Source of the DNA: Eremomyces bilateralis CBS 781.70
Taxonomy: Eukaryota
Assembly: GCA_010015585.1 (NCBI GenBank)
Contig: ML975151.1
Length of the DNA stretch: 64,000 nucleotides
Reading direction: 5' to 3' (one strand)
In this document: one piece after another, positions 1,129-25,900 of the stretch
Layout: every line of letters starts with the position of its first letter
How positions within the stretch are numbered: the first letter of the stretch is position 1
The notes under the pieces: generated by a model
Told to the model about the DNA's origin: nothing
The model's database searches: none
What the model saw: the letters and a program-made list of their open reading frames with translations, nothing else
Position numbers and translations under genes: made by a program

Positions 1129-1416
1129 TGCTTTCTGGATACCGGGATTTTACAGGTGAGGGCTTTATAGGGAAGGCCTGATAAGGAAGATCTTGAGATA
1201 GGTGTTATAAGTAAGAACGGAATATAGCTAGGAATTCTTTTATATCTTGAGAATTGGGGCAGAATTTGGCGGTAGTACGAATACCGACAGCGATAACTAT
1301 ACCTTAGGTACTAATTGTCGAACCTTGCTCTATCTACCCTTCTTCTAGATTCCCAGGGGCGTCCCTTTTGGGGGTTTGGCTTGGTTGGGTAGATTCATCA
1401 CTAATATCATGTAAAT

Positions 1417-2223
1417 CTAAACCTGAACCCGCGATGTGTACGCTTCGGACCCAGTATGACAGACTTCTGTTCCCCCGGCCCGAACCAGTTAGGGGATATC
1501 AGACACAACAGCGGAAAGGCCCGCACCGGATGATCCAGAACGAGTATCGAGCAAAATGGAGGGAGAGATGCCAAGCCGAAGCGGCCAGACCAGGAAGGAG
1601 AGCAAGGACATGGAAGGACCCGTGGGAAACCCAGTGCCTTAACCGGTACGACGGCCTTCAGAAACACGAGGCCTCGGCGCTCATGGCACTACGGACTAAG
1701 GTAGTTGGAGTTAAAGGATGGCTCGCAAAAATTGGTGTCCCTGGAATCCACCCAGCGTGTGAGTGCGGTGCCCCCCGACAGTCTCTCTACCATCTCCTTG
1801 CATTTTGCCCGCAGCGGACCGACCAGAGGATCGCGCTCCTCCAACGAGCTGGAACAACGGACTTTAAGAGGATATTGCATGACAGGGACAAGGTGCGCCA
1901 CGCAGCAAGGTGGCTGATCGATGCGGGAGGCCTAGAGCAATACCGGGTGGCCAAGGAAGTTGAGGAGGAGGTAATAGAGGACTGGAAACCGTTCCAGCTC
2001 CTCCACGACGTGCCAGAATAAGCTCTCCGCGTAGGCGGAAACACCGACTCGTACGGATAGATGATAAACGTTTGAGATAGTCTACTAAAGGGAGGAGGCG
2101 GGATTTTATGTACCCGCAGCCTCAGGGCTACGGGGAGACTTTTGCCCGCGGCAGACCAGATAGAATGCCGTGCTCATAGACCCGAAAGGGATCCAGATAG
2201 TACGTTAAATTGATTCTTATTAT
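1417..2223 (+). mobile_element. 5'-truncated non-LTR retrotransposon (LINE, Tad1-like): ORF2 C-terminus, 3' UTR and short TTA tail
   Basis: The ORF ending at 2021 has the C-terminal zinc knuckle CECG..QSLYHLLAFCP. A perfect 15-bp target-site duplication TAATATCATGTAAAT lies at 1402-1416 and 2224-2238. The terminal ~70 nt recur at 12730-12799, followed by (TTA)n. Confidence 0.9.
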
Positions 2224-2629
2224 TAATATCATGTAAATTGTGAATACTATTTGCTATGTGTTTGCCAATGATTTTGGTTTATGGTAATCTAAGCTGTAAA
2301 CTAAGGCGATCGTATTACTACCATATCGATGAACGTTGGGATATGGGGACTTTATAGGTGAGTACTTATCCCCAATTCTTGACCACCACATTCTTTCATA
2401 CCCACCGGTATCTACCTACTTTACTATCTTATTATCGCAATTACAGGTAATGAGGTGCCGTATAGTAATCTTGGCCCATAACACGATGGCTTACTAGGGA
2501 GCAGAGAGATGAGTATTGGCATGTGCCTACTACCCCTTGATCATCAATTGTACCCCATATCAAAAGCCTTATAGTTCAACGCCGAGTCCTCATTGGACAG
2601 CAAGTATCAAAACTCGCTCATCTATAATT

Positions 2630-3480
2630 ATCAATAAGCGGCCAGGCTTAATAGCCATTGGTTAGTCTGCAGAGATCTCTAAACACGAAGATTCACACCT
2701 CGTCAAACATCCCAAGTACTTTCCTGGACACTCCACATACAACGAGATGTACCATGACCTTATCGCCACCGAGAGAACCATCTATGAGCGCCTAGGTGAC
2801 CATGAAGGTATCATTAAGTACCTCGGAATTAACTATGAGAGCACTGGGGCGATCAAATTGGCGTATACGAGACAAGGACGGCTGTCAAAATACATCAAAA
2901 CCATGATACCCCATCTCAATCATTTCGCGATGCATGGATTCGCTCCTTGATCGAAATATTCTACCACATCTATTCCTGCAAGGTTCTCCACCAAAACATC
3001 AAGCTCAGTCACATCCTCGTGGGGGACGACTGTTTGAAGGTCACCGATTTTGCCAACGGCGCCATCCTTCCCCCCGATGCCGATATGGAAGCAATTTGCG
3101 CCGATGGTCCGCTGTCCAAGGTTGATTTACTCTGCCTTGGCTGATTCATATATTCCATAACCACCTGAGGAGTCTTTATGTACGATTATTTCGAACACAA
3201 ACGTTGGTTGGAGCCGGGAGAGCTACCACTGATAGGCGACATCCCGTTGGGCCAAATTGTTGGGAAATGTTAGCATAACAGGTATAGCACCATGGCATCA
3301 CTTTACGAGGATGCCATTGCTTGTCAAGGTCAGAGACGTCAGATGAGCACGGAATTACCGGACACTCGTTTATCGTCTCGTCCAACGAACGGAATTGTGT
3401 ATGTGACTGAGAAACGTTTCTTGCAGACTTATGTAAATTTCCCTCTTTCTCGATCCGCGGGTGGTTGGGTCCCTGCCTAA
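2630..3480 (+). pseudogene. Ser/Thr protein kinase-like pseudogene
   Basis: Fragments read IAIG*SAEI...ERTIYERLGDHEGIIKYLG, then after a frameshift near 2900 VLHQNIKLSHILV...KVTDFANG...KVDLLCLG*FIYSITT*. There are several in-frame stops and the catalytic loop is degenerate. Confidence 0.75.
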
Positions 3481-5515: not shown

Positions 5516-6107
5516 TATGGTGTGGCTTAGGGGATAACGGATTATATAAATTCGAAGGGCTGAAGATGGAATGCAAGATACAGCATAGCAATCAGGGAGC
5601 GACTAAATAATAGAATATATAGACAGAATAAAGCGAACCACCATAAAAAGAAATACGACGATAAAAGAATTACGTGTTCCATATATCCATACTTCCCTTC
5701 TTGAAACTCGCCCGCATTGTGGTGCAACCCAACAAGCACCCACAACTCCATCTGGATCTTTGTTAGACATCTGGCCCGTTGAAGAACAAGCGCGGAAGTT
5801 CGAGATGCGAGAGCGCTCTATTCTGGGTGCATCAGCATAGGAAGCAAGTCTCCTTCGATGCACAGCGGCACATCTGGGGTTCTGGGGAGCCGGAGATCAG
5901 GCTGCCTGTACACTGTGTACGACGGTGGCCTCGATGTCAGACCCGACTAGGTGGTGGTGGATAGCGTAAGACTTTGGGACAACCGATCATAACTCGAGGC
6001 AGCGTGTAATGTTACAGATGGAACGTAGAAGAGGAATCGTTGACATATTTTTGGCGCCAAGCGTCACCTTTGGCCCTCTCTTCACGAAGCTGGGATGGAG
6101 TGATATT

Positions 6108-6505
6108 GGAGAGGTTTTGCAACCTCGAAAACCATTTTACAACTCCACTACAACCCACCTTTCTGTTAGCCATAGGTCCTAATGGAGTTTACGGTGTAAA
6201 TTTTAATGACCCACAGTTGTAACTCATTTACAACAGTTGTAATCGAGTTACAACTGGTTGTAAATGTGCTAACGAACTTTCGTGAAGTTTGATTGGCCGG
6301 AACCAAAGGTTTTTATGCCTTAGGCCACAATGTTGATGCCTTAAAATTATTTTTTACAACTTTTACAACTTTTTGTTGCCTCGTTGCCTCAGGCTCAATA
6401 TTATAGTTTATACGCTAACTAACCTTATATAGAGATATTAACCGCTTTTTTTGTGGAGTTGTATATCGAGTTGTAAAATGGTTTTCGAGGTTGCAAAACC
6501 TCTCC
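6108..6505. mobile_element. MITE (non-autonomous DNA transposon), 398 bp
   Basis: Perfect 38-bp terminal inverted repeats (GGAGAGGTTTTGCAACCTCGAAAACCATTTTACAACTC at 6108-6145; reverse complement at 6468-6505). ATT flanks both ends (6105-6107, 6506-6508). The interior is AT-rich and non-coding with many TACAAC/GTTGTA sub-repeats. Confidence 0.9.
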
Positions 6506-6580
6506 ATTGAAATGTGGCCGACGTGACACGGTCTGGATGCGCAAGGTCTGCGATTACCAAGTTCCATTAATCTAAACTGA

Positions 6581-6597
6581 AGAGAGAGAGAGAGAGA
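6581..6597. repeat. (AG)8 microsatellite
   Basis: Seen directly: AGAGAGAGAGAGAGAGA. Confidence 0.9.
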
Positions 6598-6831
6598 AAA
6601 AATCTCCCGGCACCTTTGTGCGCGAGATAGCGACTCTCCTCTCCAATGCCCTACTGCTGTGTTACCATGTTTGTTTGCTTCTCTGATATAATCCACCAGC
6701 CACGTCTTCAGCCACAACCAAGGGAACAGGCCGCAGGCCTGGGACCATAACACGACGGTTGGGTTTGGCGCTCGGTATCGGGCCGGCGGTGGGTCTGGGC
6801 GGGTTCTCCCCTTCTCGGAGTGCCAAATTTA

Positions 6832-8685
6832 AGTCAACAGCCCCCGTTTTCGTGCACCCCTGTTTTCGTGCAAACCAAAATAGGTAAATTTCTGTAGATC
6901 TATACTCTACTTCATCAATCAATTCAACATGATGAGATGCTATACTGAAAATGCCTCGTGTGAATGAAGTCGCTATACAGCTCGCTATACAGGCATTTCA
7001 TGATGAAAATTCGATTCCTTAAACCAATGCGCGGATGAATACGGCATCAAGAGATCAACGCTTCGCTCCCGACTGAATGGCTCAATATCCCACCAGGATG
7101 AAGCTAAAAGGTTTCAAAAATTGTCTCCAGGTCAGGAGAAATGGCTCGTCGAGTGGATTATAGAAGAAGATGTCGCTGCTAGGGCTCCTTCGCACGCAAG
7201 AGTCGGTCAAATGGCAGAAGCAATCGCCAGAGAAAGTGGAGATGACACCCCTTGCGGCAACCATTGGTCCGAGGGCTTTATACGACGAAATCCCGAAGTA
7301 AAAACCATGGTAGGGCGATCGATCGAGGCCTCTCGCGTAAATTGCGCATCGAAAGAAGTTATCCAGGAGTTCTTTGAGACCTATCGACGCGTTTGTACGA
7401 ATTACAATATCAAAATCGCTAACCAATGGAATTTCGATGAACATGGACTCTCCCTTCGATGCGGGACCAACGGAAGAGTAATCGCCCCTGCTCAGACTTC
7501 GTCCAAAGGACGTAAAAAAGGCCATACGTACATCAAATCGCCAGAGGATCGCGAATGGGTCTTGGTGCTTGAGGCTATCTCCGCGGCCGGCCGCACAATC
7601 TCCCCCCTGATCATTTTCAAAGGAAAATCGGCCCAATCTTCATAGTTTCAACCACAGGAGGAATATATACCAAACTGGCACTACACGAGCTCTGAAAACG
7701 CGTGGACTTCTAACGAAATCGGCCTTCAATGGATGGAAAAGAAGTTCTTGCCCGAGAGCAAGCCCCTAGACTTCCCCGCGGACGAATGGCGACTTTTAGT
7801 GCGCGATGGACACGGTTCTCACGCCACGGTAGAGATCATGAAGTTGGCCAAGGAAAACCGAGTATATCTTTTGTTTTTGCCCGCTCACACGTCCCACCTC
7901 CTGCAGCCCCTGGATGTTTCGGTTTTTTCGCCCCTGAAGTCAAAATACTGCAAAGAATTGAGTCAATTGTCATCTCTTGACGACTCTGCGCCTGTAAAGA
8001 AGCATAACTTTATTTCTATATATCATAAATCACGAATACAGGCTCTGAATATACATAATATCCGTGCGGGATTCCGTGGCACCGGCATGGTTCCGTACAA
8101 CCCCGAAAAAGTCCTGAACAGCACCCATTTGAACGAGAATCACGTAATACAGCGTCCTATTACCTCTGAGCCTACTTTTCCTACATTGTTTCATACGCCA
8201 AAAGGGCCCCAAGACGTATGTCTCCAAAAATATGATGGGATGGGGGGGAGGGATTTTCGGGGCTTTCAGGGGAAAGTTGCGAAGGCGTTTTCGGCGAAGA
8301 ATACTGAAATTGCACAGCTGAAGGCGGAGATTCAGAAACTTCAGAATACAGTGACAGATCTAGGCGGACCTATAGGGAAAAAGAGAAAAAGAGTTCAGCC
8401 CGATCTGAACGAAAGATTCGTTCAACTCGATCAGATCCTTCATGCGCAAAAGGAGGCGCAAAAGGCGGAAGAAAAGGCCGCAAAACGACGAATGAGCTCG
8501 GAGGAGACATCACGAAAATTACAGGAGGCTACCTTCGAGTTTATGTGTTTTGAATTCCAAATTTAACTATACAAAAATAATATGGCAGGCGTTGAATTAC
8601 CCAAAATCTGTCCCATACCGTGTCTGGTTGAAGTTTTGAGGGGGTGCACGAAAACAAGGGTGCACGAAAATGGGGGCCGCTGACT
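6832..8685 (+). mobile_element. Fot1/pogo-family DNA transposon (~1.85 kb)
   Basis: ~41-bp imperfect TIRs (AGTCAACAGCCCCCGTTTTCGTGCACCCCTGTTTTCGTGCA / ...TGCACGAAAATGGGGGCCGCTGACT) with an internal TTTTCGTGCA direct repeat. TA target duplication at 6830-6831 and 8686-8687. It encodes a DDE_1 transposase. Confidence 0.93.
6951..8566 (+). pseudogene. Fot1/pogo transposase (HTH + DDE_1), inactivated
   Basis: Motifs WNFDEHG, REWVLVLEAISAAGRTISPLIIFKGK, LLVRDGHGSH and LPAHTSHLLQPLDVSVFSPLK. There is a frameshift near 7020 and a TAG stop at 7643-7645 (likely from TGG). Confidence 0.9.
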
Positions 8686-10319
8686 TACTGCAGCACGCCG
8701 TACTGTGCTCGACGGAAGACGGAAGGGCCGAATTCCATTGGCTTTTGAATGACGTATGCCGCCTGCTGTCCCTCGACTTCAGCCTCCTCCTCCACCCTAA
8801 AATTAATCACTTGCCAACCTCCTACAGCACCTAGGCACCTCTGTTCCCGTGTCAGATCCTACATCTGCACCAGCTACGACTGCTGTAACTACTTCTATCC
8901 CTCTCTCAGTCCCTGCGCCTGTTCCCATGCCAATTCTTACATCTACACCAATTACGAATCCTGTAACTACTTCTGTATCTTTGTCAGTCTCTGCACCTAT
9001 TCTAGTGTCTTCTCTTACCCCTTCTCCTTTGTCTTCACCGTTGTCTGTTACTGTGTCTGTTGCTGCGGCTCCATTTCATCAACAGCCTACCTGGCAACCT
9101 CTCTCGTTAGAAGAGTTCTTAGCTGATCTCGAGCATCGACGACTTCAGCCCGTCCTATATGACTGTAGTAACATAAACTCATTGACCAATATTTTAGCTG
9201 AGACAGGACGGGAAAATGACCCCACTGAACTGGCTGAAGCACGGAACATATGGCTCTCGGTACAAGTGGAGTATACGCTTCCTGCACCTCAATAATGGCA
9301 TGGAATTACCATTTTGGAAATATGGAAAATTTCTACGCCGAAAGAATTGCACAAGTCGATGCACAAAATTCTCTTTTTGGGTCTGGGGATGTGCGCAGGC
9401 AGCATCCTAAGCAGAGTCGGCTTCAAATGCTTGGAAAGGACTTAGCCCGCGCAAGAGACAGCGACGTCAGTAGAATATTATAAATGACGAGAAATCGAGA
9501 TGCGCTTCAAAGTCCTTCAGTCGGACGAGAGTTCAATAGTGACACATAAAATATTACTAGTAAGAATTAATTAGGAAACGGAGAGGACAAATCTCAAAAA
9601 CAGGGGGACAAAGAATCTCAGCAGCCTTCCGAGGTATTGGTACAATACAATGCAATAGATACTAGTTTTATTGAATTATTGTCGCAGGCCAAAGCATTAG
9701 CTCTAGGAGCATGAGGCTACAAACTGCATTAATAATCTTGTCGTGAGTCTCGTAATTATATCTGCAAACCTCATCGACCCGGCATGACTTTCGGGTTCGG
9801 CAGTCGCACCAATCGGCGAATCGTCGGCATAAAGTGAACCATCCCTTGGCGCCGCAAATCGAATTGTGGTATTTTTCCAACAAAAACTTGCACGGACTCG
9901 CGCTGACTAACCGCACTGCCCATATACAACACTGAACACGGTGTATTGAAAGTGATCCCCATGATTAGGATGCACCCACATTGCACTCGCGAATTCTTTC
10001 CTACCAACTTCATCTTTGAATGGTGTCGTCCATTGCCGACCTTTGGCCGTCCTGGTCTATCGAATGGGAAAGACGGTCTAGGATTGCCTAGGGCACATGC
10101 CTGGCAGCATCAGGGAGATGTGCCGCTGAAGGAGGCGGGAGCCCATTCCGGCTCGCCGGTCCTCCTAGACGGCTCGAGACGTATTCCCCTGAGTGGGCTT
10201 TCGAGGAGATGGAGGGAAACATTATTAGTACTATGTTCTCTTCTTCGCCGCTTCTCGGCGCTCTAATCGTTAACTCTGTCCTGTTCTTTGGTCGTCGACC
10301 GTCATTTCCTACCGCCGTA

Positions 10320-12763
10320 ATGGCTCCTCCAAAGAGAGTGGCCGTTGGAGAATCGGAAGACGAGGCCTTTAATGTGGAAAAGGAGCTTGAAATTATTGAG
10401 GGTTACGATTTACAACCGCTCGATGATAGTCCTGAGATTGCACTAGAGACTACGAAGCGGCGCGATCGCATTATGGAACATTGGAATGGGTAAGTGGACT
10501 ATGGTAAAGTACCCGCATTGAAAAAATCCCAACGAAACCTTCATCTCCCTCCTGTCTTTACGCCTGACGCCTTTTATCTACCTTTTCCTAACATGTTCCG
10601 CGATCATGGCGACATAGTTACTTCCGAAAACTCAAGATCGACCCAGATAGTATCTGGCTTGATCCCTGCCGCGATCTGGACCAAGCAAAAAATAGGTGTC
10701 GTGGGTTTTTGCGGTATTACGTCCGGACTTCTGTGCAGAAGTTTGTCGTCCTTGGACCCGAAGAGTATGAAACCTGTCGAACAGTTAATTCCGCCTATAC
10801 TCTCCTACAATATTGGAGGAACCTTATCGCCAAAGCCGACGCTACGATTCTGCAAGAGAAAAGGCGGCAAGATCCAGCAAACAAGCGACTCTGGCGGCTG
10901 AAGTTTATAGATCATCAGAACCAGCGTGGGGAAGGTCCTGTTTTCGAGATATCCAAGGTTGGTTGAGAATCCTGATCTAACCTTCACTTTTCTATCCCAA
11001 TCGATGTGCTTTTGAGAAGCTCTTCTACTGACTAGCTTCCTCTAAACGTAGTGGATCTATAAAGCAGGTGCAGCGGAACTCGGGCTTATCACTGCTATAC
11101 TCGTCGAAAAAATTGAAGCTACTAAAGAGGATGTGATCATAATTCTACGTACGCTCTGGGATCGCTCCGACGATATCCCTTGTAAGCCAGAACATCGAGT
11201 TTCGTTTCATGCTATGGCTGTAACCGCCAGCATTGGAGGGTTTAGACCAATTGCCTTAGTTAAGTTCCCTTATAGACAGATTCAACTGGCGATAGTACGG
11301 GACCCGAGAGATCCATCTAAGAGGACGATTGCGGCTACGTTTTCGGTTAAAATAGTGAAGAGACGTCGAGCAGTTCGTCGGAACAAGGATGCTACTATGT
11401 ATACCATTTTAAAATCCTTTTTCTTTTCTTCGTTGACTAACATATCTCTCGTTACAGGCTGTCTTTTACAGTGTTCTTAGTACCAAATCTACTCCTATGC
11501 CTTGCAAGCCTTACTATTTCTCGTGCTATTTAAGACGACGCGTTCGACATCGGTGTTGACTCGGTGAAGGATCTACTTAAGCGACCTAATCTAGGCAAAG
11601 TAGACTATATCCCATTACACTAGAAAAAGGACAAGCTAGATGATCCCATCTTTAACCTTAATTATCGTACCTATAACAATTTGTGGCACCGATGTTGTTT
11701 CGTTGCCGGCTTACGAGAGGACCCCCGTCTCTATACCCTTCGAGTCGGTATAGGAGCGGATCTAGACGGTAAGGCGAACGGATCTCTTCTTATTCATAGT
11801 ACCAAAATAGCACAAGCACCTTCTAATTCATAATATCTAGGCGTGGTATCCGATATATTGCGGAACTACGTTATGGCAAACACAACGGCAGTCTTCCAGA
11901 ACAGCTACCAAACAAAACATGTCCGCACTAACCTTTTGAAAAAGAGGTTCCATGCGTTCATTCCTACTGAGGGGCAGGACGATGCTCTCGATCAAGCAAT
12001 CCGCAGCATGTCGTTGAAGAGGGACCCGGACGCTCCTATCGACCCTACGCCAGAGGATTTATAAAAGTTTGAAAGGCGCAGCGATATATCCGCGCTCCGC
12101 TCACGTATAGAAGCTACCAAAGGAAACAAAAACGAGTGGAATCAGCTTCGAATAAAGGTCCGCCACTTGATCCGGCGTTTGTCAGACATACTAGTAAGGG
12201 AGAAAAGAAAGGAATATTTCAACCGGGTCGACAGATTGCGAGCTTTAGGCCAGGCAGTTCGAGCGGAGATCGGCGCCGCGACGTCATCAAGAAATCGCAC
12301 GAATCCACACGGTCGTAGTAATGCTATCATCTACGTTACCCAATACCTGCAATGCTTTACAGCAAGGCCGGATAAGCGAAATCGGGTCAAGCTGCACTCG
12401 CCGGCACGTTTTTTGACCTTGCTCCTGTCATTTCTGCTGAACCATCCCACTGATGACAACCTGGGATATAATCATGGTCAGAATGAAAGCGAGAATGAGC
12501 TTATCAACGCCCAGGCCAGCACAGCGCAGGCCAGCACTGGATGCCAATCTTCCGCTGAAGCGGGGGATTCAGCAATATCTATTTGCTTTCTTTGCTATAC
12601 ACGGTTTAAAAAACGCTACAACCTCACGAGGCATTTCAAGGTATCTCACTTTGCGCGTGAGGGGATCGACCAGCCATTCTCATGTCCTGAATGCCGTCGG
12701 TGTGGGATGCCAGAATGTTCGATCACTGGCCGCGACAGACCAGATAGAATGCCGTGCTCATAG
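10320..12763 (+). pseudogene. DUF3435-type tyrosine recombinase (Starship 'captain'-like) with C-terminal C2H2 finger; five exons, inactivated
   Basis: The spliced translation shows GGFRPIAL..YRQIQLAIVRDP, LCLASLTISRAI*DDAF, PLH*KKD, AGLREDPRLYTLRVG, LRNYVMANTTAVFQNSY, SMSLKRDPDAP, RKEYF and CFLCYTRFKKRYNLTRHFKVSH. Introns are at about 10490-10617, 10958-11051, 11399-11457 and 11768-11840. Stops lie at 11531 (TAA), 11621 (TAG) and 12062 (TAA). Confidence 0.82.
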
Positions 12764-12844
12764 ACCCGAAAGGGATCCAGATAGTACGTTAAATTGATTA
12801 TTATTATTATTATTATTATTAGTTATTATTATTATTATTATTAT
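12730..12844 (+). mobile_element. Extremely 5'-truncated copy of the same LINE (terminal ~70 nt plus (TTA)n tail)
   Basis: 12730-12799 matches 2146-2215 with one mismatch and is followed by ~45 nt of (TTA)n. No target-site duplication is visible. Confidence 0.9.
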
Positions 12845-13336
12845 ATTCATTTCGGAGCTCTAGTTATGACATGTCTGTCGGTGGGCACGCTTCTGCTCGA
12901 CTCATTGGACGGGATGTTTTCTCGATGTCATGGGCAGCTTGTAGGCTTCCCTGAGGCACGCGCTACACTGACGAATCATCATGGGTCCTTATAGGTGTGG
13001 AGCTAACGACCCTCCTCCAGCAACGATAAAGCGCCTAAGAATAGCAATGCTCGAAGGTGGGTGGATCTGCGGACGAATACTCGCGGAGGTACATGTACTT
13101 GATAAAGCTGCTCAGTCGAATCTGACTCTGCCATTATGGTACCTCAAATAGTCGAGTGTCAATATTAATATGCTTATGAAGATTTGGCTGCAGGGCTTCA
13201 CGCATCTATATCATAACAAGATTCACTGATAAGTTCTGGTACTATGCCCAAAGCCTTATTACCCCCGATCACCTAAGTAAGCCTCTGTATAGCTACTCTG
13301 CGTTCTCGCTACGGAGCAGAAGAATAGACTTAAAGG

Positions 13337-14570
13337 TCAGGCATTGAGGAACTTCTCATGTGGACCACCGAAGCGCTCACCCGAGACGGCTAGCGTGTCG
13401 AGGATCCTTTGGAGCTCAGCCATATCTTCCTCAGTCAGTGATGCCGCTTTGCCGTTCTCGATGACCCGTTCTTCTCTGACCGACCCCGGAATGGGAATGC
13501 CACCCACACGACACACCCAACCAATGGCCACCTGCGCTGTCGTCACGCCCTTGCGCTTGGCGACCTTCTCCACAGCCTCGACAAGCTTGAAATTCTGGTC
13601 AAAGTTCTCGGGCTTGAAGCGCGGCAGCATGCGGCGCTTGTCGTCTGCCGCGAGATCATCGATCGTACGCAAGTCACCTGTCAGCCAGCCACGGCTAATA
13701 GGGCTGTATGCCACAAGGGGAATATTGACTACATGTAGGCCACAGTGTCAGCTAAGCACCTCTAGAAGGCCGCTTGTTTTGGCTTAACTCACGCTCGTGG
13801 CAGGCGTCCGAAATGCCGTTGTAGAGAGGTTCAGGGGTGAATAAGCTCAGTTCGACCTCGACTGAGGAGATAGGGTGGACGGCATGTGCCTCGCGGATTG
13901 TGTTCGCGCTGACTTCGCTCAGGCCGATACCGCGGATCTTGCCCTCCTTGACCAGTTCGGCCAGCGCCTTTACCGTTGTCTTAATAGGGACCTGAGGGTC
14001 AATCCGAGCGCACTCGAAGATGTCGATGGTCTTGGTGCCGTCGAGGACAATGGTAGCCTCCTCGACGGAGGCGCGGACACCTTCTGGAGTGTTGGTGGGT
14101 CCGTTGGGCATGCCTGTGAACCCCCCTTTGATGCACAGCACGACCTTGCTAGCGTCCTCGGGGTACTTCTGGAAGTAGTGTTTCAACAGATGCAGCGAGT
14201 TTGCCTGAGGCGTGCCGTAGTGAATACCCTGTGTGCTTGTGAGCTTTTTGTCTCGAAGCAGGACCTACTTCTTTTGGATCAACTTACGCCATTCCAAAGA
14301 TTAGCACCCTGCTCCAGCGCTGTCTTCATAACCTTGACCGCGATGGGATAGTCAACAGGGGCCCACGGCATCGTCAGACCTGAGGCACAGAATGTCAGTA
14401 GTCATTCTTTTGCGTTAATCAATGAGTGCGTACTCCCCCAAAGCAATACCACGGGGCTAGAACAGGCTGTATGGGGGGTATGCCGACAATTACTCACCCA
14501 TCATGCCGAACCCTACAGGGCCAATCACGCGGCCGTTGACATTGGTAAGTGCTGTTCTGCTGGCGCTCAT
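13337..14570 (-). CDS. Aldo-keto reductase, pyridoxal-reductase (PLR1/AKR8)-like; four exons
   Basis: Motifs GPVGFGMMGLT, WNGGIHYGTP, KVVLCIKGG, IDIFECARIDP, GKIRGIGLSEV, EVELSLF, AYSPISRGWLTG and IPIPGS. Introns are canonical and no disabling lesion was seen. Confidence 0.9.
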
Positions 14571-14799
14571 GGTTAACGATGTGCTGTAAATTCTTGAATA
14601 TGATGTGAAAGAAGCGAATAACCCTATTCGGCCTGAACAGGAACGTGTATACGATTGTAAGTAAGTAGTTGAGTTTAGGGCACAATTTTGGGCAATCCTC
14701 AATATATATAAGTGAGGTGCGGGCCGTATCTCAAGGGCCAAATAATTGGTCTCCGAAAGGTTGGGGATGTCTTTGTATGGATGTTGCCAGGGTTTTATG

Positions 14800-14819
14800 T
14801 CCGATCCTCCGATCCTCCG
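14800..14819 (-). promoter_or_regulatory. Two overlapping CGG-N5-CGGA sites (putative Zn2Cys6 binding sites) upstream of the AKR TATA box
   Basis: TCCGATCCTCCGATCCTCCG equals CGGAGGATCGGA twice on the gene strand, ~90 bp upstream of TATATATA (14703-14710). 16 bp are identical to the reverse complement of 19470-19485. Confidence 0.7.
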
Positions 14820-15107
14820 TTGCTCCATCTCCCTTCCCCTACAACCCCCCATCCCTGACCATTGCTGCAGGTCAACAGAGCACGATGGATGGTGGCGTCA
14901 CCACGAGCCGCATGTTATGGACATGCCCAGCGGGTAACACAAAAAGCGAGACTCATAATTGGGCTTGGCACCACCACACCATACAAATTTATATACAGTA
15001 TAGGATATCTCAACAACCACGTAACTAAATTAATTTCAATTTGAATATAAGCAAGTTTGAAGCTATTCGCACCCATAGCTTTCGTATATATATAAAAAGC
15101 GTGGCGG

Positions 15108-16294
15108 TTAGCCCGGCATTCCACCGCTATAACCAATAAGCTGCCCATCAGACTCGATGACTTTACATAGCCGATCAGGTATAGAAAGCACCCGTTTATT
15201 AATCCATTCCTGATTAAGACGCTCGTACCATGCCTCTTTTACTAATTGTACCGTTTCCTCGGGTTCCCAATGCCTATATTTCCTTACATATCTTTTGATC
15301 GGTTGCCAACAGTCCTCGATAATCGAGAGCTCCGGAGATCCTGCGCAATTAAAGAAACAATAAAGTCCTACTTCCGTTTTCCACCTCGAGACGGCGGAAG
15401 GCTTTGTCTTCGTAGATCTTGGTAGTACGTGACCGCTATCCTGATCCTCCTTAAGCACGAAATAGTCTCCATTTACGAGCCATCCGCCAACGACAGGCTT
15501 TAGGATATCGTTAAGATAGCATTCCTGCGTCATCTTCCCGTTTATATTACTCGGGATCTCGTAGAATACGAGTGGCCCTTTGAAATTGTATCCGACGGCT
15601 GCCCAAGCGTGGACTTTCTTCTTATCTTCCTCATCGGGATCATCGACGCGTTGAATGCATTTTGGATAATACCGTTGGCCTCGTTTCCGGATAATCAAAG
15701 TCTTGCCTTAGGGCCCAAGGCCAAAGTGAACGTCATCGCTAAATCTGACGTGTTTCTAGTACTTTGGCGTAGGGTATTTGGCGAGCATCTTTTTCGCGTA
15801 TGCGACACGCTTAGTAGCCAATTGCTTTGAAACCTAGGCCTTTCGACAAGCGATACATTTCGACAAGCGATACATTTCGACAAGCGATACATTTCGACAA
15901 GCGATACATTTATGGTAATCAAGCGATTGCATTGCTCTTTGTATCGTACGTCCTGAGCAATCAATATCAGCCTCTATAGCGAGGGTTTCCCACGTCATTT
16001 CTCTGTCTTGAGAGTCCATCTCTTCTACCAACTGATCGAGCATTGCGAGCTGCGTAGGGCTGATGATTGGCTTCCGACCGCGTGTTTCTTTTTCACAAGT
16101 TCGTCGGTTTCCTCGAGAAGACTTTATAATTCGATAACCGGAGGATTTAGGTATACCGTTACGGTGGAATATTGAATTGTTCGAGCGCGTCGTCTCGAAA
16201 CCATATAGTCTCCGTCGCACTCGTTCATGCTCGATTTCGCCGCGAACACGGGACTTTTTTGGAGTATCATGGTAAGGACCGGGATTTTGGGCAT
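15108..16294 (-). pseudogene. Tc1-like DDE transposase, inactivated
   Basis: Reads MPKNPGPYHDTPKK...RGRKPII...SGRTIQRAM...VRFSDDVHF...VHAWAAVGY...VLKEDQDSGH...SPELSIIEDCW. In-frame TAG/TAA stops lie near 15834, 15757 and 15708. Confidence 0.88.
15841..15911. repeat. 17-bp tandem repeat x4 inside the transposase gene
   Basis: Perfect copies of TTTCGACAAGCGATACA start at 15841, 15858, 15875 and 15892. Confidence 0.97.
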
Positions 16295-17333
16295 TTTTAG
16301 AAGCCTTTTGAGCTTAAGAGCGTGTATAAACCATGGCAGACGAATTAATTATTGATTGTTGATAACTATCTACAGAGTACTTTGTAAGGGGGCGGGCAAA
16401 CATCGGCAATTTGTGAGTCTCGCTTTTTGTGTCACCCGCTGGGGCATGGCCCATGGTTGGCACAGGCTGAGAGCCTAAGCCTAATCAAGCCTAGCGTAGA
16501 GATGGAACCTCATCAAGATTCCTCTGTCATAGTTACCTTGTACTCTTCATCTCAATCTAGAATATCTTTGGCTACGCGTATGTTGTGTGCATCCAGCTAC
16601 CGTGCCGTAACACCGCAATATTGAGTGTCATTCGGTGTCACGTCCAGCTGGATTACAGAACCTGGCTGAATGGCCTAGGCATGTCCAACAGGTGTGCCTT
16701 GGCGTGATCTCTGCACTGCGAGTTTTCCGTAGAGTAACGAATGGCCTGCAACACGTGCTGCTCTAGGACCTGTGGGCGGTGGTCAGGGGCTGCCAGCACG
16801 TAGCTGCAATTCTCTGATCAGTGGAAAGTGCACCGATTGCATGGCGTTTTGTCGTATCACTGGCTGAAATCAACTAAGTATCCTGAATGAGTCGCCTCCG
16901 ATTGATGATTCGAATTTGGATGGCGGTACTTCAGTTTCCTACAGCCGATGTCAAGGACCATCGAAAGTCTGATTTGAGCCTCCCGACTCTCACAGTCCTG
17001 ACGTCTCGAAGACGGGCGCAGTGAGTCATGCGTAAAAGACACCTTGGAAGTCCCGGCGTAAGTGGCAATCCATTCTAGTTAACATGGTACAGTCAAGTTG
17101 AGAATGGGCAGAAGCGATTGACCAAACCGCATATATTTCGTTGTACAATTATATATATGTTCCAGTTGTAGATGCAATCTATACCTTACCCTCCATATAA
17201 ACTTCTTCTCTCCTGAAGCCATCGACAGCCACCGGTACCCGAGAGCTGCCTCCTCGTGGCGTGACAGAGCTGCTCAATGAAAAGACATAGTCCCAGCTCG
17301 ACGCATCCTCAGTTGGGCCCGAGCAAGGTGCAA

Positions 17334-19072
17334 TTACCACTCAACCGCAAAGCGGTTTCTCCATGCCTTACCGTAGCGGTAGAAAATCCAAGGCACCGGC
17401 ATAAAGGCAAGACAATTGAAGCCCAGCACGCTGTTCCCCCGTCCTAGTCCTAGTTGCCTGTATGGGGAGGTGCTGCAAGGGTCAAGAAAGCCCCAAAGGG
17501 TAACCGAATGACCAAGTTCGCCGCGAGTGCAGACGCGCCAGCTTCAGCGCCAAAAACATCAACCAAATACGTTTGCGCCGGTATAATCACAAAGAGTGTA
17601 CCGAAGCCAAGAATGAATGTCCCTATTATTGGCACGATCCAATGGACTTGATAGTACGCGGTCCATCCATAGAGAAAGCACCCAAGGGGCGTGAAGGGAG
17701 CGAACCACTTCATCAGGATCAGGCGCTCCTCCGCTTGGGCAACCTTGCCGTCCCTCTTCTGTCCCAGTAACTTGTCGCTCAATGCAGCGAAGAGGATCAA
17801 GGCAGCCATGAGACCAATCCCGAGGCCAAGGTAAGCAAGTCCGGAGATGACTACGTTGAAACCGTAGGTCTCGCCGAAAACCTGGGGGAAGGTCGTGAAT
17901 AGTAGGAAGATGAGACCGAAGAGAAGGCCTATGTACAGTGACAAAGGAGCACGATGGGCGAAAAGATCAACAATTTTGCTAGTCTCACGACCGCTCGACG
18001 CATCATTTGCCTGGGTGTCTGACCGGTGTCTCCCTTGGCGAGCAGCCTGTCGTTTCCCGTCTCTTTCCTCAGGCGCTCTGCTTTGCGACGCAATAGAACC
18101 GACGCGCTGGTTTCCTGCATAAAGATTAATATAGCAGCTAAAAATACCCCGGACTGTGAAGAGTGTAAGAGTCAGATCATCGAGAATAGGGTCACGAAAG
18201 CCTTACAAGAATCAGAATGAGGCGGAACGACCAACGACATCCAATTGTCTCGGATACAAAACCGCCGATGATGGGGCCTAAAACCTAGGATGTTTTAGTA
18301 AACACGATCTTAGCTTAATCATGATCATCTAACCTACAGTACCGAGCAGGGGACCGAACCCGAACAGTGCAATGGCTCGTCCTCGCTCCTCTTGTGGAGT
18401 GACATCGGCCACAGTGCAATGGCTCGTCCTAGCTCCTCTTGTGGAGTGACATCGGCCACAGTGCCACCTCCAATACCCATAGGCCCCGAAGCAGCAGTGC
18501 CGCTGATAAATCGGAAAACGATAAACATGGCTGTGTTTGTGCTAAAGGCATAACCAACAGTGAAAGCGAAGTAGACTATGTTACAAGCGTAGTACATAAT
18601 GAGACGACCGTAGAGCTACGATAGTGGTGCTAGGAACAAGGGCCCTACAGCGAGCCCTAAGGCGTAGATACTGACTGTATACTCCGGACGGTGGAGTTGG
18701 TGATATTGAATTCGCGGCCTAATTCTTCGGCCCTGGGGGCGAACATGGTTGATGCTAGGTTGCTGGGTTATAGGAGACGTCAGTGATAAACAGCGAATCC
18801 CACATCGGGGGTTTATGCGAGAGTTGAGTGACTAACGCTGAGAGAGTGAAGATGCCGACTATAATTATATGAAGGTTCTTGTTGGATTTGGGCCAATTCA
18901 TGGGGTTAGCGGGATCATCGGGGCCGTCCTAGTCGACGATGTTGGGATCCGGCTCTGGGTCATGTTCGACGCCAGCCGCCACTGTCGAGGCGACGGAGCA
19001 CTGCACTTCGGATTCTCGGCTCCCAAGAGTAGCTGCGTCCGTGTCAGCAGCTGGGACATCTGTCGTGGTCAT
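17334..19072 (-). pseudogene. MFS multidrug transporter (DHA1 family) pseudogene
   Basis: Reads MTTTDV...NIVD*DGPDDPANPMNWP, then GGGTVADV, FMQETSASVLLRRKAERLRKETGN, SGLAYLGLGIG, YGWTAYYQVHWIVPIIG, YLVDVFG and PVPWIFYRYG. It carries a premature TAG, frameshifts (~17940, ~17460) and a 47-bp duplication. Confidence 0.88.
18364..18464. repeat. 47-bp tandem duplication bounded by ACAGTGC microhomology
   Basis: 18364-18410 and 18411-18457 differ by one base. ACAGTGC occurs at 18364, 18411 and 18458. Confidence 0.95.
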
Positions 19073-19286
19073 GGTGAGATCTATCAGCAGCTGTTATGGA
19101 CAGTGTCCTCGTCGTGGCTCTAAGGCTTGTAATGGGTTCAAATCCATGACATGCGTTCAGCTTGGCGAATAAAGAAGCTGAAATGTTGATAAAGGGGTGA
19201 AACAATAGTGAATATCAAATGGTTCGGTAATATTAGATTCCAAAGGAGGTGATATGCAGACTGTAGAGGCGCAGACAGAGAACTCA

Positions 19287-19501
19287 TCCGATCGTCCGCT
19301 CAGAGTACGTCAAGACCTCCATTTGAAAGGACCTCCATCCATCATATTATTCATATATCCGCACCTTGAAATCACATGAGCTGGCTGCTAGGACGGTGTG
19401 AGGGTCGAACTTCAACAAAGGTCGGCGGACGGGGCATCGGAGCTTTGGATATATAGTGGAGCATTGTATATCGGAGGATCGGACAAGAGCGGAGCATCGG
19501 A
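19287..19501. promoter_or_regulatory. Four CGG-N5-CGGA sites in the divergent MFS / Zn2Cys6 promoter
   Basis: CGGACGATCGGA (minus, 19287-19298), CGGGGCATCGGA (19430-19441), CGGAGGATCGGA (19472-19483) and CGGAGCATCGGA (19490-19501). Confidence 0.72.
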
Positions 19502-19619
19502 TCAATGCTTGGCTTGGATTGCTTACCTCCAGTACCTAACCCTCAACCATCTGTTCCTCAACTCACAGTCATCAACTCCACCTGTAATATGATTTCTGAA
19601 ATGCAACCGGACTTAGACG

Positions 19620-22188
19620 ATGTCTAACCAAAAAGATCCGGCGCCTGTCTACAGCGGACCTGGCAACACGCCAAGAGGTCGTACTCGGCTGCCATCTAGC
19701 AGGCGAAGAGACAAACCACAGTTATCCTGCAATTTGTGCAAGAGGCGCAAGTATGCTGTCTGCACATTTTTGAAGGTCCACGACTCTAATCCAGAGCCAG
19801 GCTGAAATGCGACCGAGAGCAACCTTGTAGTACATGCACAAGACGAGGCCTGGCTTCGACCTGCGTATACTCCTCGAGCACGCCATTGCCCAGGAATGAA
19901 CCGAACCAGGTCCCCAGGCCTGTTTCCAGAATGCAGGACCGAATTCAGCAGCTTGAGAACCTGGTCTTGAACCTGATGCAGGTCGCCACGGGACGCGACA
20001 CTGTGCAAATACCACAGACTGATCTTGGCCGTGCAAGCTCTGTTCCGACCAATGATAGCCCAGCCAGCACAACCCCAGGCGAGGACATCCCCGAAGATGC
20101 TTCGACCGCCGCCTCTGATCATGGGAGTACGAGGTTGAGCAAATCTGGCGCGAGCTACGTGAATAGCTCTCATTGGGCTGCCATCCTTGGGGAAATCGCA
20201 GAGCTCAAAGACCATCTTGAGGAGGAAGCAGAGCTGCAACATCCTCGGAGCATCTCTGACTCTCTTGATCCGAGCTTTTCGGGGCCGCAGTTGCTATATG
20301 GCTATCCAAGATATGCATCGAAGGCAGAGATCCTAGCTTCAATTCCGTCGCGGCCGGTTGTGGACAGACTGATCTCGTGCTATTTCAATCTTTTCGACAT
20401 GTCCCCAGGTTGGTGTTAATCCGAGTCGGGCGTGTGGTAATACACTGATACCAAACACAGTCGTATTACACACCACTCAATTCCTCAAGGAGGTATGCGA
20501 CTCATCCACCAACGAGCCAGTCTCAGTTGGCCCAGCTGACATGGTCCTACCTAGTATGAACAATTCTGGGAGAGTCCGTCTAGCACCCCCTCCGTCTGGC
20601 TGGGTCTACTATTCACTATCATGTGTCTTGCAGCTCAGTTCCAGAAGTTTGGCGTCGATCCCGGGGTGCAGCTCCCGCCGAGCCAAGGTCACGAGTCAGA
20701 TCTGGGGACCATGGTAGAGTCATACAAGCTGAAGGCTGTGCAGTGTCTCATCCTGGGTAGATACGCCAGTGGAGGCCCCTACGTGTTGGAGACGCTGATG
20801 CTTTATTTCACTCTTGAGCATTTCCTCTGCAAGGATGCCGACGTCAGCGTATGGATCTTGTTGAGCACCATTGTGCAACTAGCCATGCATATGGGCTACC
20901 ATAGGGACCCGAGTCACTTCAATGGCATGTCCGCTTTTGCGGGCGAGATGCGAAGACGCGTATGGGCGACCATCGTCGAACTCGATCTTGGCTTCTCCGC
21001 GCAGATGGGTCTGCCGAGATTAGTCAAGCCATGGCTGTCCGACACGGCCGAGCCTCGAAATCTTCTCGATACCGACTTTGATAAGGCCACTGCAGAGCTG
21101 CCACCATCCAGGCCCGCGGCAGAGCTTACTCCGATGCTCTATCGTCTCGGGAAGACTCGGATGATGGTGGCCTTTGGCTTGGTATGGGATTTTGCAGCTG
21201 ACATAAGAAGTTACACGCCCAACGATGTAACCAAGATAGACGCCAAGCTCGAGGAAGCGCTCAAGGCGGTACCAGATTGCCTCAAGTGGCGGTCCATGGC
21301 ACACTGTATCTTGGACCCGCCTCAGGTCATCTTACAGAAGGTCGTGCTGCAGATCATCTACTACAGGGCCAGAATAGTCCTACATCGAAAGTACATTAGC
21401 CGTGCACAGAACGCGGATCAGTATGCGCATTCCAGAGAGGTGTGCCTAAATGCCGCACTCAAGCTCCTTGACTTGCAACACATGATCGACGAAAACACGC
21501 GGCTATTTTGCCAGCTGTACCATGAGCGCTGGAGGATCTCTTCTCTCATCAACCACGACTTCCTCCTGGCCACAAGCATTCTCTGCTTCTATTTGCGGGA
21601 GGTCACCGGCGAGCCCTCGGACGTAGGCGAATCCGCGTTGGTCGAGAAGATCATGAAAACCCTGGAAAGGTCTCATGACATCTGGCTCCGCTCCAGCGAT
21701 GCCTCCAAAGAGGCGCGGAAGGCGGCCAAAGCTTTGAGCGTCGTGATCGGTAATCGAAAGGTGCCATCGGCAACAGCACAGGCCGGGGGGACCAATGCAG
21801 TGAGCTCACAATCGCTAGCAGGCTATAGTGATTCGACAACCGATCATCATGGTGAGTATACACACCCACAAGACCTTCCGGCGAGCCTCGGTCAGCGATA
21901 TGCGCGGCACATTTATGAGTTAACAAAGATGTCAGGGTACTTTTCGGATATCGACGTGGCGTCCCCATTCGTCGACCCTACGACATCTGGAAGCTGGAGA
22001 GACATGATGAACGAGCCTGTTGGATCTTATCTACTGCCGGAGACGGCGCCTTCGTCCACTTACGGACAGCAAATGACATACTGTAAGTGAACTTGGTGTA
22101 ACCTAGTCCAGTTTGGAGTCGGTGGCTAACATGCGAGACAGCGCTGGATACCATGACCTCTTCTCAGTGGCCCTGGCAATCAATATGA
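19620..22188 (+). CDS. Zn(II)2Cys6 transcription factor with fungal_trans middle homology region; multi-exon
   Basis: The spliced cluster reads [32 protein letters not shown]. Other motifs are [39 protein letters not shown] and [11 protein letters not shown]. The 3' exons are approximate. Confidence 0.9.
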
Positions 22189-22918
22189 TGCTGTTCAGCG
22201 GTCTCTTTATTAACTTGATGGTGTTGACTTTCAGGCAGCTCCCGGACTATGTTGCCCTCCAAGCTGTTTTGGCGATTTTGAAGTCAGAGACGGTTATTCT
22301 GGGCCCGGCCACTGGGCGACATTGACTCAGATGGTGTTAGGGGTGGTAGTTCGGTCACCAATCTCACGTCAACGTGTACAAGGGCCTTGACTCATGAAGA
22401 TATAAGAGACCGCAGGTTCACACTGGGGCCATTACGTATCATCGTAAGGGCCTGGCTGGTGCGTGTGCCTAACTCCAGCCGTCGCGTTAAGGAGTTCAGT
22501 CGGGCGGCATGGCGACCACTTTTGCCGGGGAGGCGGGGGATTTCGGTGTGGATAGGGACCGCCGAAGGTTGGGCAAGGTGGATTGAGGGACGATGATCGA
22601 GAGTGTGGTCATACAATACAACCCGCAGCAAGCAAAGGAAGATATCGGTACTTTTATCAACGAACCATAAACATCCATCGACGTAGCTAAGAAACGTCTC
22701 AACCCATCCGATCCACAAGTGTCCCCCATGATATCAGGCTCGCACCGTAGAACGCCGTTCCCCTGGAGACAAGTCTCGGCCACCGGGACGTTGGAGTGCC
22801 TCCCATAAATGTGTTCAGCGTCGCTGATCGCAGATTACAGATCCCGAAACTCCAGACGGTACGAAGTAGAAAGACACTAGACACAACCCGCCCGCTCCTC
22901 GATCCATCCATCAAAAGT

Positions 22919-25900
22919 TTAATCGCCGAGGACGCTCTCCGGCTCCTCCTCCGCGCCAGCGTTCACATCCTCATCTTCCTCCCGGTCCTCCTCCTCAATC
23001 TCATCCACCACCATCTTCTCCACCCCCTCCTCCTCCTCCTCAATCTCATCATCCTCCACCTCCATCACTCTCTCCGCACTCTTCATCCCCTTCCCCCCCT
23101 TCTTTTGCGGCTGCGCCTTCCCCGTCGCCCCCTTTTTCTTCCCCCCTGCCGCCCGCTTCTCAAAAAACCCCACCACCTCCCGAAAATTCGCCCCCAACCT
23201 CCCTTTATTCCGCCCGAGCCGCTCCGCCACCCGTTTTCCGACCAGCCCCGCCGCCACCGCCAGCACCAGCTTCGACGCTAGCTCGCACAGCCGCTGCTCC
23301 GCGACCAGCGTCCGCTGCAGCCGCTCCCGCCGCCTCTCCTCCGATGTCTCCGCGTCCTCGTCCTCGTCGATCTCCTCCTCTGACTCAGGCTCTTCGTCCA
23401 CCGTCTCCGGCTCCTCCTCCTCGTCGTCGCCCGTCTCGAGAGCCCGCCCGCTGCGCCGCGCGTAGGTCCGCTCCGCCGCGCCGAGCACCTGGATTGAGAG
23501 ATCCTGCAGCGCAGGGTCGACGTTGAGGACGAGCGCGAGGAAATCCTCGTGGGGTGAGGTGGCGGAGGACGAGGCACCGTTGGGCTGCGCGAAGCGACCT
23601 TTGAATTGGCGGAGGGTGCTGAACGCGCAGGCGAGGTCGTAGACGGCGCCGACGCAGGCGCAGCGGACTTCGTCGGCGCCGGGACGGGAGCGGATGACGG
23701 TGGCGAGGGCTTTGACGAAGGCGTCGCGGTGGGCGGCGAGGGTATCGAGGTGGGCGTCGGGGATGGAAGTTGGGGGGGTGGTGGAGAGGAGGGCGGCGAG
23801 GTGCTTGACTTTCCAGAGAAGGTGGAAGAGGAGGGCCTTGGTGGCGTTCAGGACGAGAGCATCTTCTTCGGTGTTGATCTCGGGTGGGATGCCGGTGCCG
23901 GGAACGCCGCGGTGGAGGAGGGTGGTAAGGAGGGAGATGGAGTCAGAGTGGGGGGAGGGTTGGGTAGAGGAACGGCTTTTGGATTTGGATTTGGTGCGGT
24001 GGGAGGTGGTGGGGGACGCTTCGAGGGGGTCGGTGCAATCGGAGATGCTGGAAAGGTTGGCGATGCGGAGGACAGTGTTGCTTAATGCTAGGAGTGCATT
24101 GGACTTTAGACTGCCGCGGGTCATGAGATTCCCGGCTTGAGCTGAGAAGTGCAGCGCAGACATGGTATCGTCCCACAGAGATTGTAATTTGCCGGCAGTG
24201 ATCTCCTCCAGGTCTTCGTAGCTCTTCGCATGTAAGAGTGCCATGCTTGCCTCCGCGAGGACAGACTCATTGCCATGCGTTAGGAATTGTTTGTTGATAT
24301 CATCTAGCAAGGCGGGAAGCATGGTGGACTCTTCACGAAGGGCTTGGAAGATATCCAGATTCAGAGCTCGCTCCAATCGCAGCACTGCCGATGCCGTCGA
24401 CGGCTGGGCCCCAAACTTGTTCAGTAGACGAGGGATGAGTTTCGCTAGGTTCTTCGATGCCTCCTCTTGCTCGTCGATGAGCCCTTGTTTCTGAGCTTTG
24501 GTCCGCTTGACCTTCTTGTCAGCGAGGGTTTGCGCCGTCTCCGTCAAAGAGAGTTTGACGGACGCATTCAAGATCTCGAGAACGATGAGCTCTTCGGCGT
24601 CGGAAAGTCGGACGGCATCTTTGAACCGCACGGCAATATCGTTGGTCGCAACGCCATTCACAATGGGAGCTGAGTGATCGAAGAGCAGATACGCTGCGAG
24701 GTACTCCCAATCTAGGAACTCCGCCAAGTCTCGAGATTTTTCGCAGAGCAGGGTTGCCGCCATCGAAAATCGAGATTCGACGCCCGAAGCGATGAGCAGG
24801 TAGCGATCGCTTCCCGGAACTCGTTCGTGGTTCGTTGGTTCGGTCTCATCAGAATCGTACGCCTCTAGCAGCTCCACCAAACTCTTAATCTTCAGCCACT
24901 CGAGTGTCGGAGCTTCAGGATTCTCCGCATGCTCGGAGTCCTCGAGTATCTCCTGCAATGACTCCACTCCGCCGACGTCTTCCACTTTTAGCTCATAGAT
25001 GTCCATGACGTTCTGCGCGAAGAACGGCACGACTGCCTGCCGCACCCGGGCTTCCGAATCGTAGATCAACTTGCCGACCACATCGATATCGTCCGGCTCG
25101 ATGGACCCGTTTTCCCGTAGCGTGTCAAGCAGCTCCACCGACGCGCTACGGACCACCGGGTCGGCGTCTTGCGTCGCCATCTCGACCATGCGTTGCCGAA
25201 ACCGCTCGATGAAGGAGCGGAGCCCCGCGAGGCGGTCCGGTTTACTGAACAGGTCACGCAGCTTTCGGACGACTTCGAGACGGGTGGGTGCATGTGTGTC
25301 GGAGAGGACCCAGCCGAGGTACCGGAGGTAGTGACCTTCGAGGAACAGGTCGGGGTATTGCGAGATCCAGTAGCTGAGGGCTTGGACGCAGTCGACGCGG
25401 ATTCGAGGGTCGATGTCTCGGTAACGATGGACGAACACCGTGTCAAACCAGCCCTTGATGATCTCGTCTAAAGTCTCAAGATGCAGGGTTTGGTCCGCAA
25501 CCTTTTTCTCGATGTCCGCGACTCTAGACTTGTTGGGCCTGCCCTTCTTCTTCTCACCATCGAGTTGTCGGACAGTTTGCGCTTTTGTAGCAACGAGTTC
25601 ACTGCCGACGTCGCATAACGCGCTGACTATGGCTAGAGAGGCGACGGTCGCGGTGTGGCGGAACGGCCTGTTGCTGGCTGAGGTCATGGACGCAAGCCAT
25701 GACATAATATTTTCCATTAACGCTGGGTCGTCGAACATGGTTGTGGCTGCTATGGATCTGACGAGAATTTCGTAAAACTCGACCATGGTCTGCTTGAATG
25801 AGACGGCACCTTTGCCGCGGGCAATCAAGGGGTATTCTGTGACATTTTGCTGGAGAGTGATCAGTTATCGCCCTGGTACCATTCAGACAGGGCGTCTCAC

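Follow-up and report, generated by a model that had tools for sequence, protein, structure and literature searches.

We analysed a 64-kb stretch of DNA from Eremomyces bilateralis CBS 781.70 (contig ML975151.1), hereafter called the window, which was found to contain a pseudogene of a DUF3435 tyrosine recombinase (YR) of the 'captain' superfamily. Our reading, to which we give a probability of roughly 0.7, is that this is a lone or stripped captain of Kirc-like type, which died in an accessory block accepting transposable elements (TEs), beside a segment of conserved core synteny. Downstream of the captain lie an aldo/keto reductase (AKR) gene, a frameshifted gene for a transporter of the major facilitator superfamily (MFS) and a gene for a Zn2Cys6 transcription factor (TF). 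An initial annotation, made from the sequence alone, had offered these three genes as possible cargo of a degraded Starship transposon. Most probably they are accessory genes resident in the lineage, which the TF suggests to be Xylariaceae, and not cargo of the captain.

Gene model and identity of the captain

The short open reading frames (ORFs) scattered between 10.3 and 12.8 kb were taken in the initial annotation to be one spliced gene, and our model agrees with this. Five exons (Table 1), with a sum of 2054 nt or about 685 codons, are separated by four introns which all read GT...AG in the sequence. When aligned with a relative of 778 amino acids (aa) from Polyplosphaeria fusca (P0002), the splice model was observed to be gap-free at every junction. 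Relatives of the captain are numerous in the protein libraries, where an exhaustive search at E<=1e-3 gave 444 representatives; 268 of them reach E<=1e-10 and 56 reach E<=1e-30. Long proteins are at best 39-46% identical to the captain, and short fragments do not exceed 60%. The high-scoring segment pairs (HSPs) obtained by tblastn with 154 relatives are confined to positions 10601-12736.

The Pfam search that had been suggested along with the annotation identifies the family. Exon 3 alone scores 26.8 bits against DUF3435 (PF11917), above the gathering cut-off of 25.8 bits, and a translation of 11459-12763 (exons 4 and 5) with the stops read through as X scores 39.8 bits (E 3.5e-10). The motifs GGFRP, YTLR, MAN..FQNSY, SLKRDPDAP and RKEYF and one C2H2 finger were all found in the captain. 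The gene is present as a single copy, with a read depth of 177-223 compared with 148-184 for the AKR, MFS, TF and SCC3 genes in two sequencing runs of one sample. The identification of 10320-12726 as a captain relic is, in our judgement, sound with a high degree of confidence.

Active-site residues

The motif order R...K...YxxR...(H/N)...Y is retained in the captain. Our alignments show that the catalytic residues are not only kept but also conserved among the relatives: the arginine of GGFRP was observed in 47 of 48 aligned sequences, the lysine of IVKRR in 27/29, the tyrosine and arginine of YTLR in 87/94 and 91/96 respectively, and the tyrosine of NSYQ in 112 of 115. The form YxxR instead of HxxR is known in Starship YR clades 1 and 3, according to PMC11162782.

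The sixth active-site position, which corresponds to the 'MGH' column and is histidine in classical captains, is occupied by asparagine in the captain (MAN), and this had been pointed out earlier as unusual. Among the 108 relatives aligned at this column, histidine occurs 52 times, asparagine 46 times and glutamine 5 times. Asparagine is one of the normal states in the subfamily; it is therefore no defect of the window copy and does not reflect decay.

We noticed that asparagine replaces histidine in about 43% of the aligned Kirc-like relatives (P0002-P0155) while R, YxxR and Y stay conserved. This His/Asn split in the Kirc-like group may merit the attention of specialists.

Inactivation of the captain

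The captain is unable to make a protein, since it carries three exonic stops and is truncated by a long interspersed nuclear element (LINE). All three stops had been described as being of the type left by repeat-induced point mutation (RIP). That there are three in the exons is borne out, in what would be the CpA/TpG-to-TpA context typical for RIP, and one of them has a clear origin: at LH*KK, 85 of 88 aligned relatives have tryptophan, so that a conserved TGG has become TAG by a G>A transition in TpG context that yields TpA. A change to TpA is the one preferred by RIP. For the other two stops an origin from CAA is a matter of comparison with relatives. The position of AI*DD varies (A 17, Q 13 and K 12; n=81), where CAA>TAA is possible, while at EDL*KFE glutamine is the commonest residue (Q 26, A 25; n=128 aligned), which is consistent with the same change. 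A fourth in-frame TAA (11831-11833) does no damage to the coding sequence, as it lies inside the 72-nt intron at 11769-11840.

The RIP indices of the captain are borderline, with TpA/ApT at 0.90 and (CpA+TpG)/(ApC+GpT) at 1.03, and its GC content is 0.468. The host genes (AKR, TF, SCC3 and an MFS gene upstream of the captain) range from 0.41 to 0.70 and from 1.06 to 1.38 for the two indices respectively. The frameshifted downstream MFS gene falls between both groups (0.82 and 1.14).

The earlier claim that the 3' end of the captain was cut by a LINE is also upheld. Positions 12727-12816 match 2143-2232 with 94% identity over 90 nt, and the latter is the 3' end of a LINE behind an ORF tail at 1308-2021. 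Depth over the fragment at 12727 is at repeat level, and loose ends of read contigs at 12730 lead upstream into LINE sequence (consensus matching 2117-2146), as in other copies in the genome. The homology of the captain ends within its first C2H2 finger (12730-12736), and no family resemblance was found past the LINE tail by tblastn with the 154 relatives. The tail of the captain was lost to the LINE event and the junction between captain and AKR seen today is therefore secondary. For the last finger, a frameshift of 1 bp was considered and rejected, as the reading changes at ~12730 because the LINE junction falls there.

Composition of the captain and its neighbours

The composition of the captain is TE-like and that of the AKR and TF genes is host-like. 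The GC content at third codon positions (GC3) is 0.39-0.54 in the captain, similar to the transposases of a pogo element (0.51) and a Tc1 element (0.45) in the same block. AKR (0.683) and TF (0.628) are both within the range of the core genes (0.61-0.77), and the upstream MFS gene has a GC3 of 0.754.

These values bear on whether the captain might be a former host gene, that is, a domesticated DUF3435-C2H2 gene that was recently pseudogenised and not a transposon gene. Its single copy and well-preserved intron-exon structure would suit such an origin, and many of its relatives are long, intact proteins with C2H2-like finger arrays. We nevertheless hold this origin to be very improbable. Besides the TE-like GC3 and RIP indices, the captain is located among other TE relics, its nearest relatives reach 39-46% identity compared with 70-88% for the TF orthologues next door, and its architecture matches that of Kirc, which is described as the captain of a proven mobile element in PMC8092012.

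Boundaries and size of a possible element

If the three downstream genes had been mobilised as cargo, the element would be a small degraded Starship reaching from ~10.0 kb to the spacer between TF and SCC3 (~22.1-22.9 kb). In support of it, the captain occupies the left end and, being on the plus strand, points towards the three genes, whose functions (AKR, MFS and TF) are typically accessory. The ends of such an element were looked for without success in the initial annotation, and likewise here. Only chance-level repeat pairs join 9.7-10.3 kb to 22.1-22.9 kb, with no direct repeat or terminal inverted repeat (TIR) among them, and no contig joining across 10-22 kb, such as an empty site would give, was found in the reads of runs X1 and X2, which come from the one sample with this DNA, probably its source. 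A third run, X3, matches the window only in SCC3 patches of ~81% identity; it lacks cover over TF, MFS, AKR and the captain and is thus uninformative there. One read-contig joint (6750>15294) was ignored, as it has 25 letters on one side and runs from repeat to repeat.

Unique DNA before the ATG of the captain amounts to ~320 bp (9997-10319), with repeats further left and no recognisable boundary. In Starships the captain is the first gene and the 5' boundary is usually less than 2 kb and at most 7 kb upstream, as stated in PMC11162782. No tRNA or Rfam family, such as 5S rRNA as a target site, was found in 1-30 kb.

The size is a further point against cargo. The largest possible element extends from 9997 to 22918 and is ~12.9 kb long including the 1.5-kb Tc1 element, which is below the Starship range known from a survey with starfish. 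There, candidates of less than 15 kb were discarded and the smallest accepted Starship has 15,020 bp; the same source counts 559 elements with predicted boundaries against 10,212 'solo' YRs, many of them expected to be pseudogenes (PMC11162782). Furthermore, the junction between captain and AKR has been remodelled by the LINE with the rest of the captain gone, AKR and TF have a host-like GC3 against the TE-like captain, and accessory, TE-rich, non-syntenic DNA continues to the left of the captain, which an element starting at the captain would leave unexplained.

Orthologues of the TF and gene order at SCC3

The closest of the TF orthologues observed is P0156, with 88% identity over 412 aa. 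The protein P0276 of Nemania serpens aligns to residues 1-739, with 73% identity in exon 1 and 70.5% in the remainder, and P0157, the cluster representative of P0276, reaches 84% where the sequence is conserved. A protein of ~60-64% identity is present in Nemania sp. FL0916.

Gene trees of the AKR, MFS and TF had been proposed earlier as a check for horizontal transfer; the one constructed here, for the TF, gives an orthogroup of Nemania type. Its 68 rows comprise the window TF, 64 named hits of the 120 listed (with Fusarium thinned), the unnamed P0156 and P0157, and P0276, other unnamed rows being excluded. The window TF forms a clade with P0156, Nemania serpens and Nemania sp. FL0916 (support 100), and this clade nests in a clade of 25 rows of which 17 are Xylariales and 5 are Eurotiomycetes. 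We also observed that the five Eurotiomycete TFs (Penicillium and Aspergillus) stand inside an otherwise Xylariales clade and that the Xylariales themselves are split over several clades. This nesting could be due to old paralogy or to transfers.

In the protein libraries, which contain proteins of the genomes with TF orthologues, no relative of the captain was found to be as close as these orthologues are to the TF. The TF thus has a graded series of orthologues (88%, 70% and 60-64%) that no captain accompanies at comparable identity, which is again at odds with transport of both in one element.

Gene order was compared with 59 metagenome loci containing SCC3, which are too far from the window (36-51% aa identity) for gene order to decide the question. 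By tblastx, positions 23-33 kb have homology to SCC3 loci, and 23-29 kb is common to many of them; SCC3 was found in 53-59 and its neighbour UreD in 25-27 of the 59. Positions 1-22.9 kb have none, apart from one locus (L055) that matches at 8-9 kb. The stop codon of SCC3 (22919) was observed to be a sharp edge of the conserved gene order. The 3' flanks of SCC3 are mutually discordant among the loci, with a nearest neighbour common to 1-5 of 32 loci; therefore a break of synteny at this place is the rule and carries no signal.

This edge may also be looked upon as the end of something larger. On the left, at least 22.9 kb of DNA that continues past the window start might be the far end of an old and much larger Starship or accessory island, with its 3' boundary against SCC3 and with the DUF3435 relic as a nested or secondary captain. 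The lack of sharing over 1-22.9 kb and the contents of the block, with five TE relics (two LINE tails, pogo, captain and Tc1), two MFS genes, AKR and TF, would be in keeping with an island. No boundary was found for it, however, and no auxiliary Starship genes were present among the ORFs scanned. The upstream MFS, AKR and TF genes are compositionally native, the TF orthogroup looks lineage-bound, and the SCC3 3' flank is labile among fungi generally, so that the break requires no giant element. A larger island is therefore unlikely.

Weighing of the readings

Several observations weigh against a captain unconnected with the three genes. Its strand and its place at the left end are as expected for a captain that faces AKR, MFS and TF. 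The accessory block ends exactly where conserved synteny starts, at the stop codon of SCC3, and homologues of AKR, MFS and TF were found within 10 kb in 0/59 SCC3 loci, where homologues of the captain were likewise not found; the edge and the absence of the three genes from these loci can both be claimed for cargo. The GC3 of the frameshifted downstream MFS gene is intermediate (0.552). In addition, a captain that is pseudogenised in the relatives would escape protein libraries, and vertical inheritance of the TF has no independent anchor, the placement of the lineage in Xylariaceae resting on the TF itself.

On balance, the proposal that AKR, MFS and TF are cargo finds no support, although it is not refuted either: no ends are seen, the interval is too short for known Starships, AKR and TF are host-like and the TF orthologues come without a close captain. 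We consider a small degraded Starship of this extent improbable. Still a little less credence is given to its most specific form, a 'mini-Starship' relic of ~10.0-22.9 kb below accepted sizes, with an N-type Kirc-like captain (Asn at the second active-site His) and an AKR-MFS-Zn2Cys6 module, inserted at the 3' end of SCC3. If the cargo reading were true, it would mean that Starships can be smaller than 15 kb and would provide a compact case of captain plus module.

According to our preferred reading of a lone or stripped captain, the gene would once have been mobile through its YR, on its own as a Crypton-like 'solo captain' or together with cargo that can no longer be recognised. After landing in the TE-accepting accessory block adjoining SCC3, a core gene, it would have decayed as C>T mutations of RIP type and insertions of TEs accumulated; a 5'-truncated LINE tail has replaced all that lay beyond the first zinc finger.

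As the evidence stands, the window adds one more decayed 'solo' captain beside the thousands catalogued. The main use of the result is correct annotation, namely of a pseudogene that lies at a synteny edge within a TE-nested accessory block, and it cautions that adjacency to a DUF3435 gene is no evidence of cargo status.

Features of the window

Table 1. Coordinates of the captain pseudogene, its lesions and the neighbouring features in the window
Feature	Position	Strand	Remarks
DUF3435 tyrosine-recombinase ('captain'-superfamily) pseudogene	10320..12726	+	five exons; ends within first C2H2 finger
Captain exon 1	10320-10489	+	predicted from ATG, GT donor and a 'DRIMEHW' motif resembling relatives; no BLAST HSP
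Captain exon 2	10618-10957	+	
Captain exon 3	11052-11398	+	
Captain exon 4	11458-11768	+	
Captain exon 5	11841-12726	+	
In-frame TAA (AI*DD)	11531..11533	+	exon 4
In-frame TAG (LH*KK)	11621..11623	+	exon 4
In-frame TAA (EDL*KFE)	12062..12064	+	exon 5
LINE 3' end	12727..12851	+	5'-truncated, multi-copy; (ATT)n tail 12788-12851; removes captain C-terminus
LINE copy tail (C-terminal ORF, 3' untranslated region)	1308..2232	+	source family of the 12727 fragment; Cys/His knuckle by eye; shared repeated 3' end
pogo/Fot1-type DNA transposon	6830..8687	+	43-nt TIRs, 91% complementary; HTH_Tnp_Tc5, DDE_1 89.4 bits; multi-copy depth
Aldo/keto reductase (AKR)	13337..14570	-	Aldo_ket_red 70.7 and 93.9 bits on two exons; seems intact, several exons; start probably ~14567
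Tc1/mariner element	14918..16455	-	TIR cores 14926-14958 and 16411-16443 (33 nt, 94%); between AKR and MFS
MFS_1 transporter	17450..19070	-	Pfam MFS_1; start probably ~19070; frameshifted
Zn2Cys6 / Fungal_trans transcription factor (TF)	19620..22090	+	Pfam; seems intact; divergent from MFS
SCC3/STAG cohesin subunit	22919..25864	-	longest exon, gene to ~26.7 kb; STAG, SCD, HEAT_SCC3-SA; first gene of conserved core block

The earlier calls of AKR, MFS, Zn2Cys6 TF and SCC3 are each backed by Pfam matches (Table 1). Together with the spliceosomal introns, the TF and SCC3 mark the window as fungal, and a search with SCC3 placed the host no further than Ascomycota. To the right of 22.9 kb are core genes, which comprise SCC3, UreD, a TFIIIC subunit, Prp19, a 2-oxoglutarate (2OG) oxygenase and LDB19. 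TEs are also located to the left of the captain, as are the second MFS gene and a fragment that resembles a kinase gene. This fragment consists of two overlapping ORF pieces at 2666-3144 with kinase-like motifs by eye (..HQNIKLSHILV.. and ..VTDFANG..), for which Pfam gave none at E<=1e-5, and it is probably a gene fragment. The LINE tail at 1308..2232 has no Pfam match.

The pogo/Fot1 transposase has one in-frame stop (7643-7645). Positions 6001-6700 and 9336-10002, on either side of this element, consist of very high-copy short repeats, with a summed contig depth of ~12,000-34,000 per bin and up to ~75,000 at single positions, compared with ~150-200 for single-copy DNA. A contig of X1 links 6589 to 9678 and omits 3088 bp, which suggests elements resembling miniature inverted-repeat transposable elements (MITEs) or deletion derivatives around the pogo/Fot1 copy. 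To the right of the right TIR, two tandem 78-nt units (8841-8996, 78% identical) encode a repeat rich in Pro, Ser, Thr and Val in an ORF at 8807-9295, which has no match in Pfam.

The Tc1/mariner element, which like the MFS duplication described below was absent from the initial annotation, has matches to DDE_3 and HTH_Tnp_Tc3_2 that are both under the curated cut-offs, and its depth is ~3-4x that of single-copy DNA. It lies ~360 bp upstream of the AKR start and contains a 17-nt unit repeated four to five times at 15824-15925, within the transposase region. In the MFS gene, a 47-nt tandem duplication (18364-18457; two copies, 98% identical) shifts the frame, and the peptide GGGTVADVTPQEE.GRAIAL occurs twice in differing frames. 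The Logan contigs of X1 break at this duplication (18414/18435), as contigs do at repeats that exceed the k-mer length.

Comparison with known captains and YR elements

The domain architecture of the relatives places the captain near Kirc, the captain of the Starship Enterprise of Podospora. DUF3435 was found in all 12 relatives scanned (35.7-104.4 bits), Chromo in two of them (P0013 and P0023) and C2H2 also in P0013. Arrays of fingers of the form 'FxCPxC...W..H...HG' were observed in many relatives. According to PMC8092012, Kirc is built of a DUF3435/YR domain, a zinc-finger region and a chromodomain, in this order, and chromodomains occur in several captains of the Enterprise family (PMC11162782). 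P0013 and P0023 share DUF3435 and Chromo with this system while the window copy has the YR domain and one C2H2 finger. The window copy differs in being a pseudogene in which all beyond the first finger, any chromodomain region included, has been lost to the LINE. We therefore describe the captain as Kirc/Enterprise-like, a placement which is drawn from domain architecture and not from a tree with reference captains.

The captain also resembles the 'solo' Starship YRs and Crypton-type elements composed of a YR alone (PMC11162782) in being a lone intron-bearing YR gene with neither recognisable ends nor cargo. The CryptonF-type elements differ by domains such as GCR1_C, which were not seen in the window copy. 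Pseudogenised captains are known as well, examples being the captain of Wallaby and the TE-interrupted Kirc of P. comata Wa139 (PMC11162782 and PMC8092012). Whereas these two head elements whose boundaries and cargo were set by empty-site comparison, they have premature stops and TE interruption in common with the captain of Eremomyces bilateralis.

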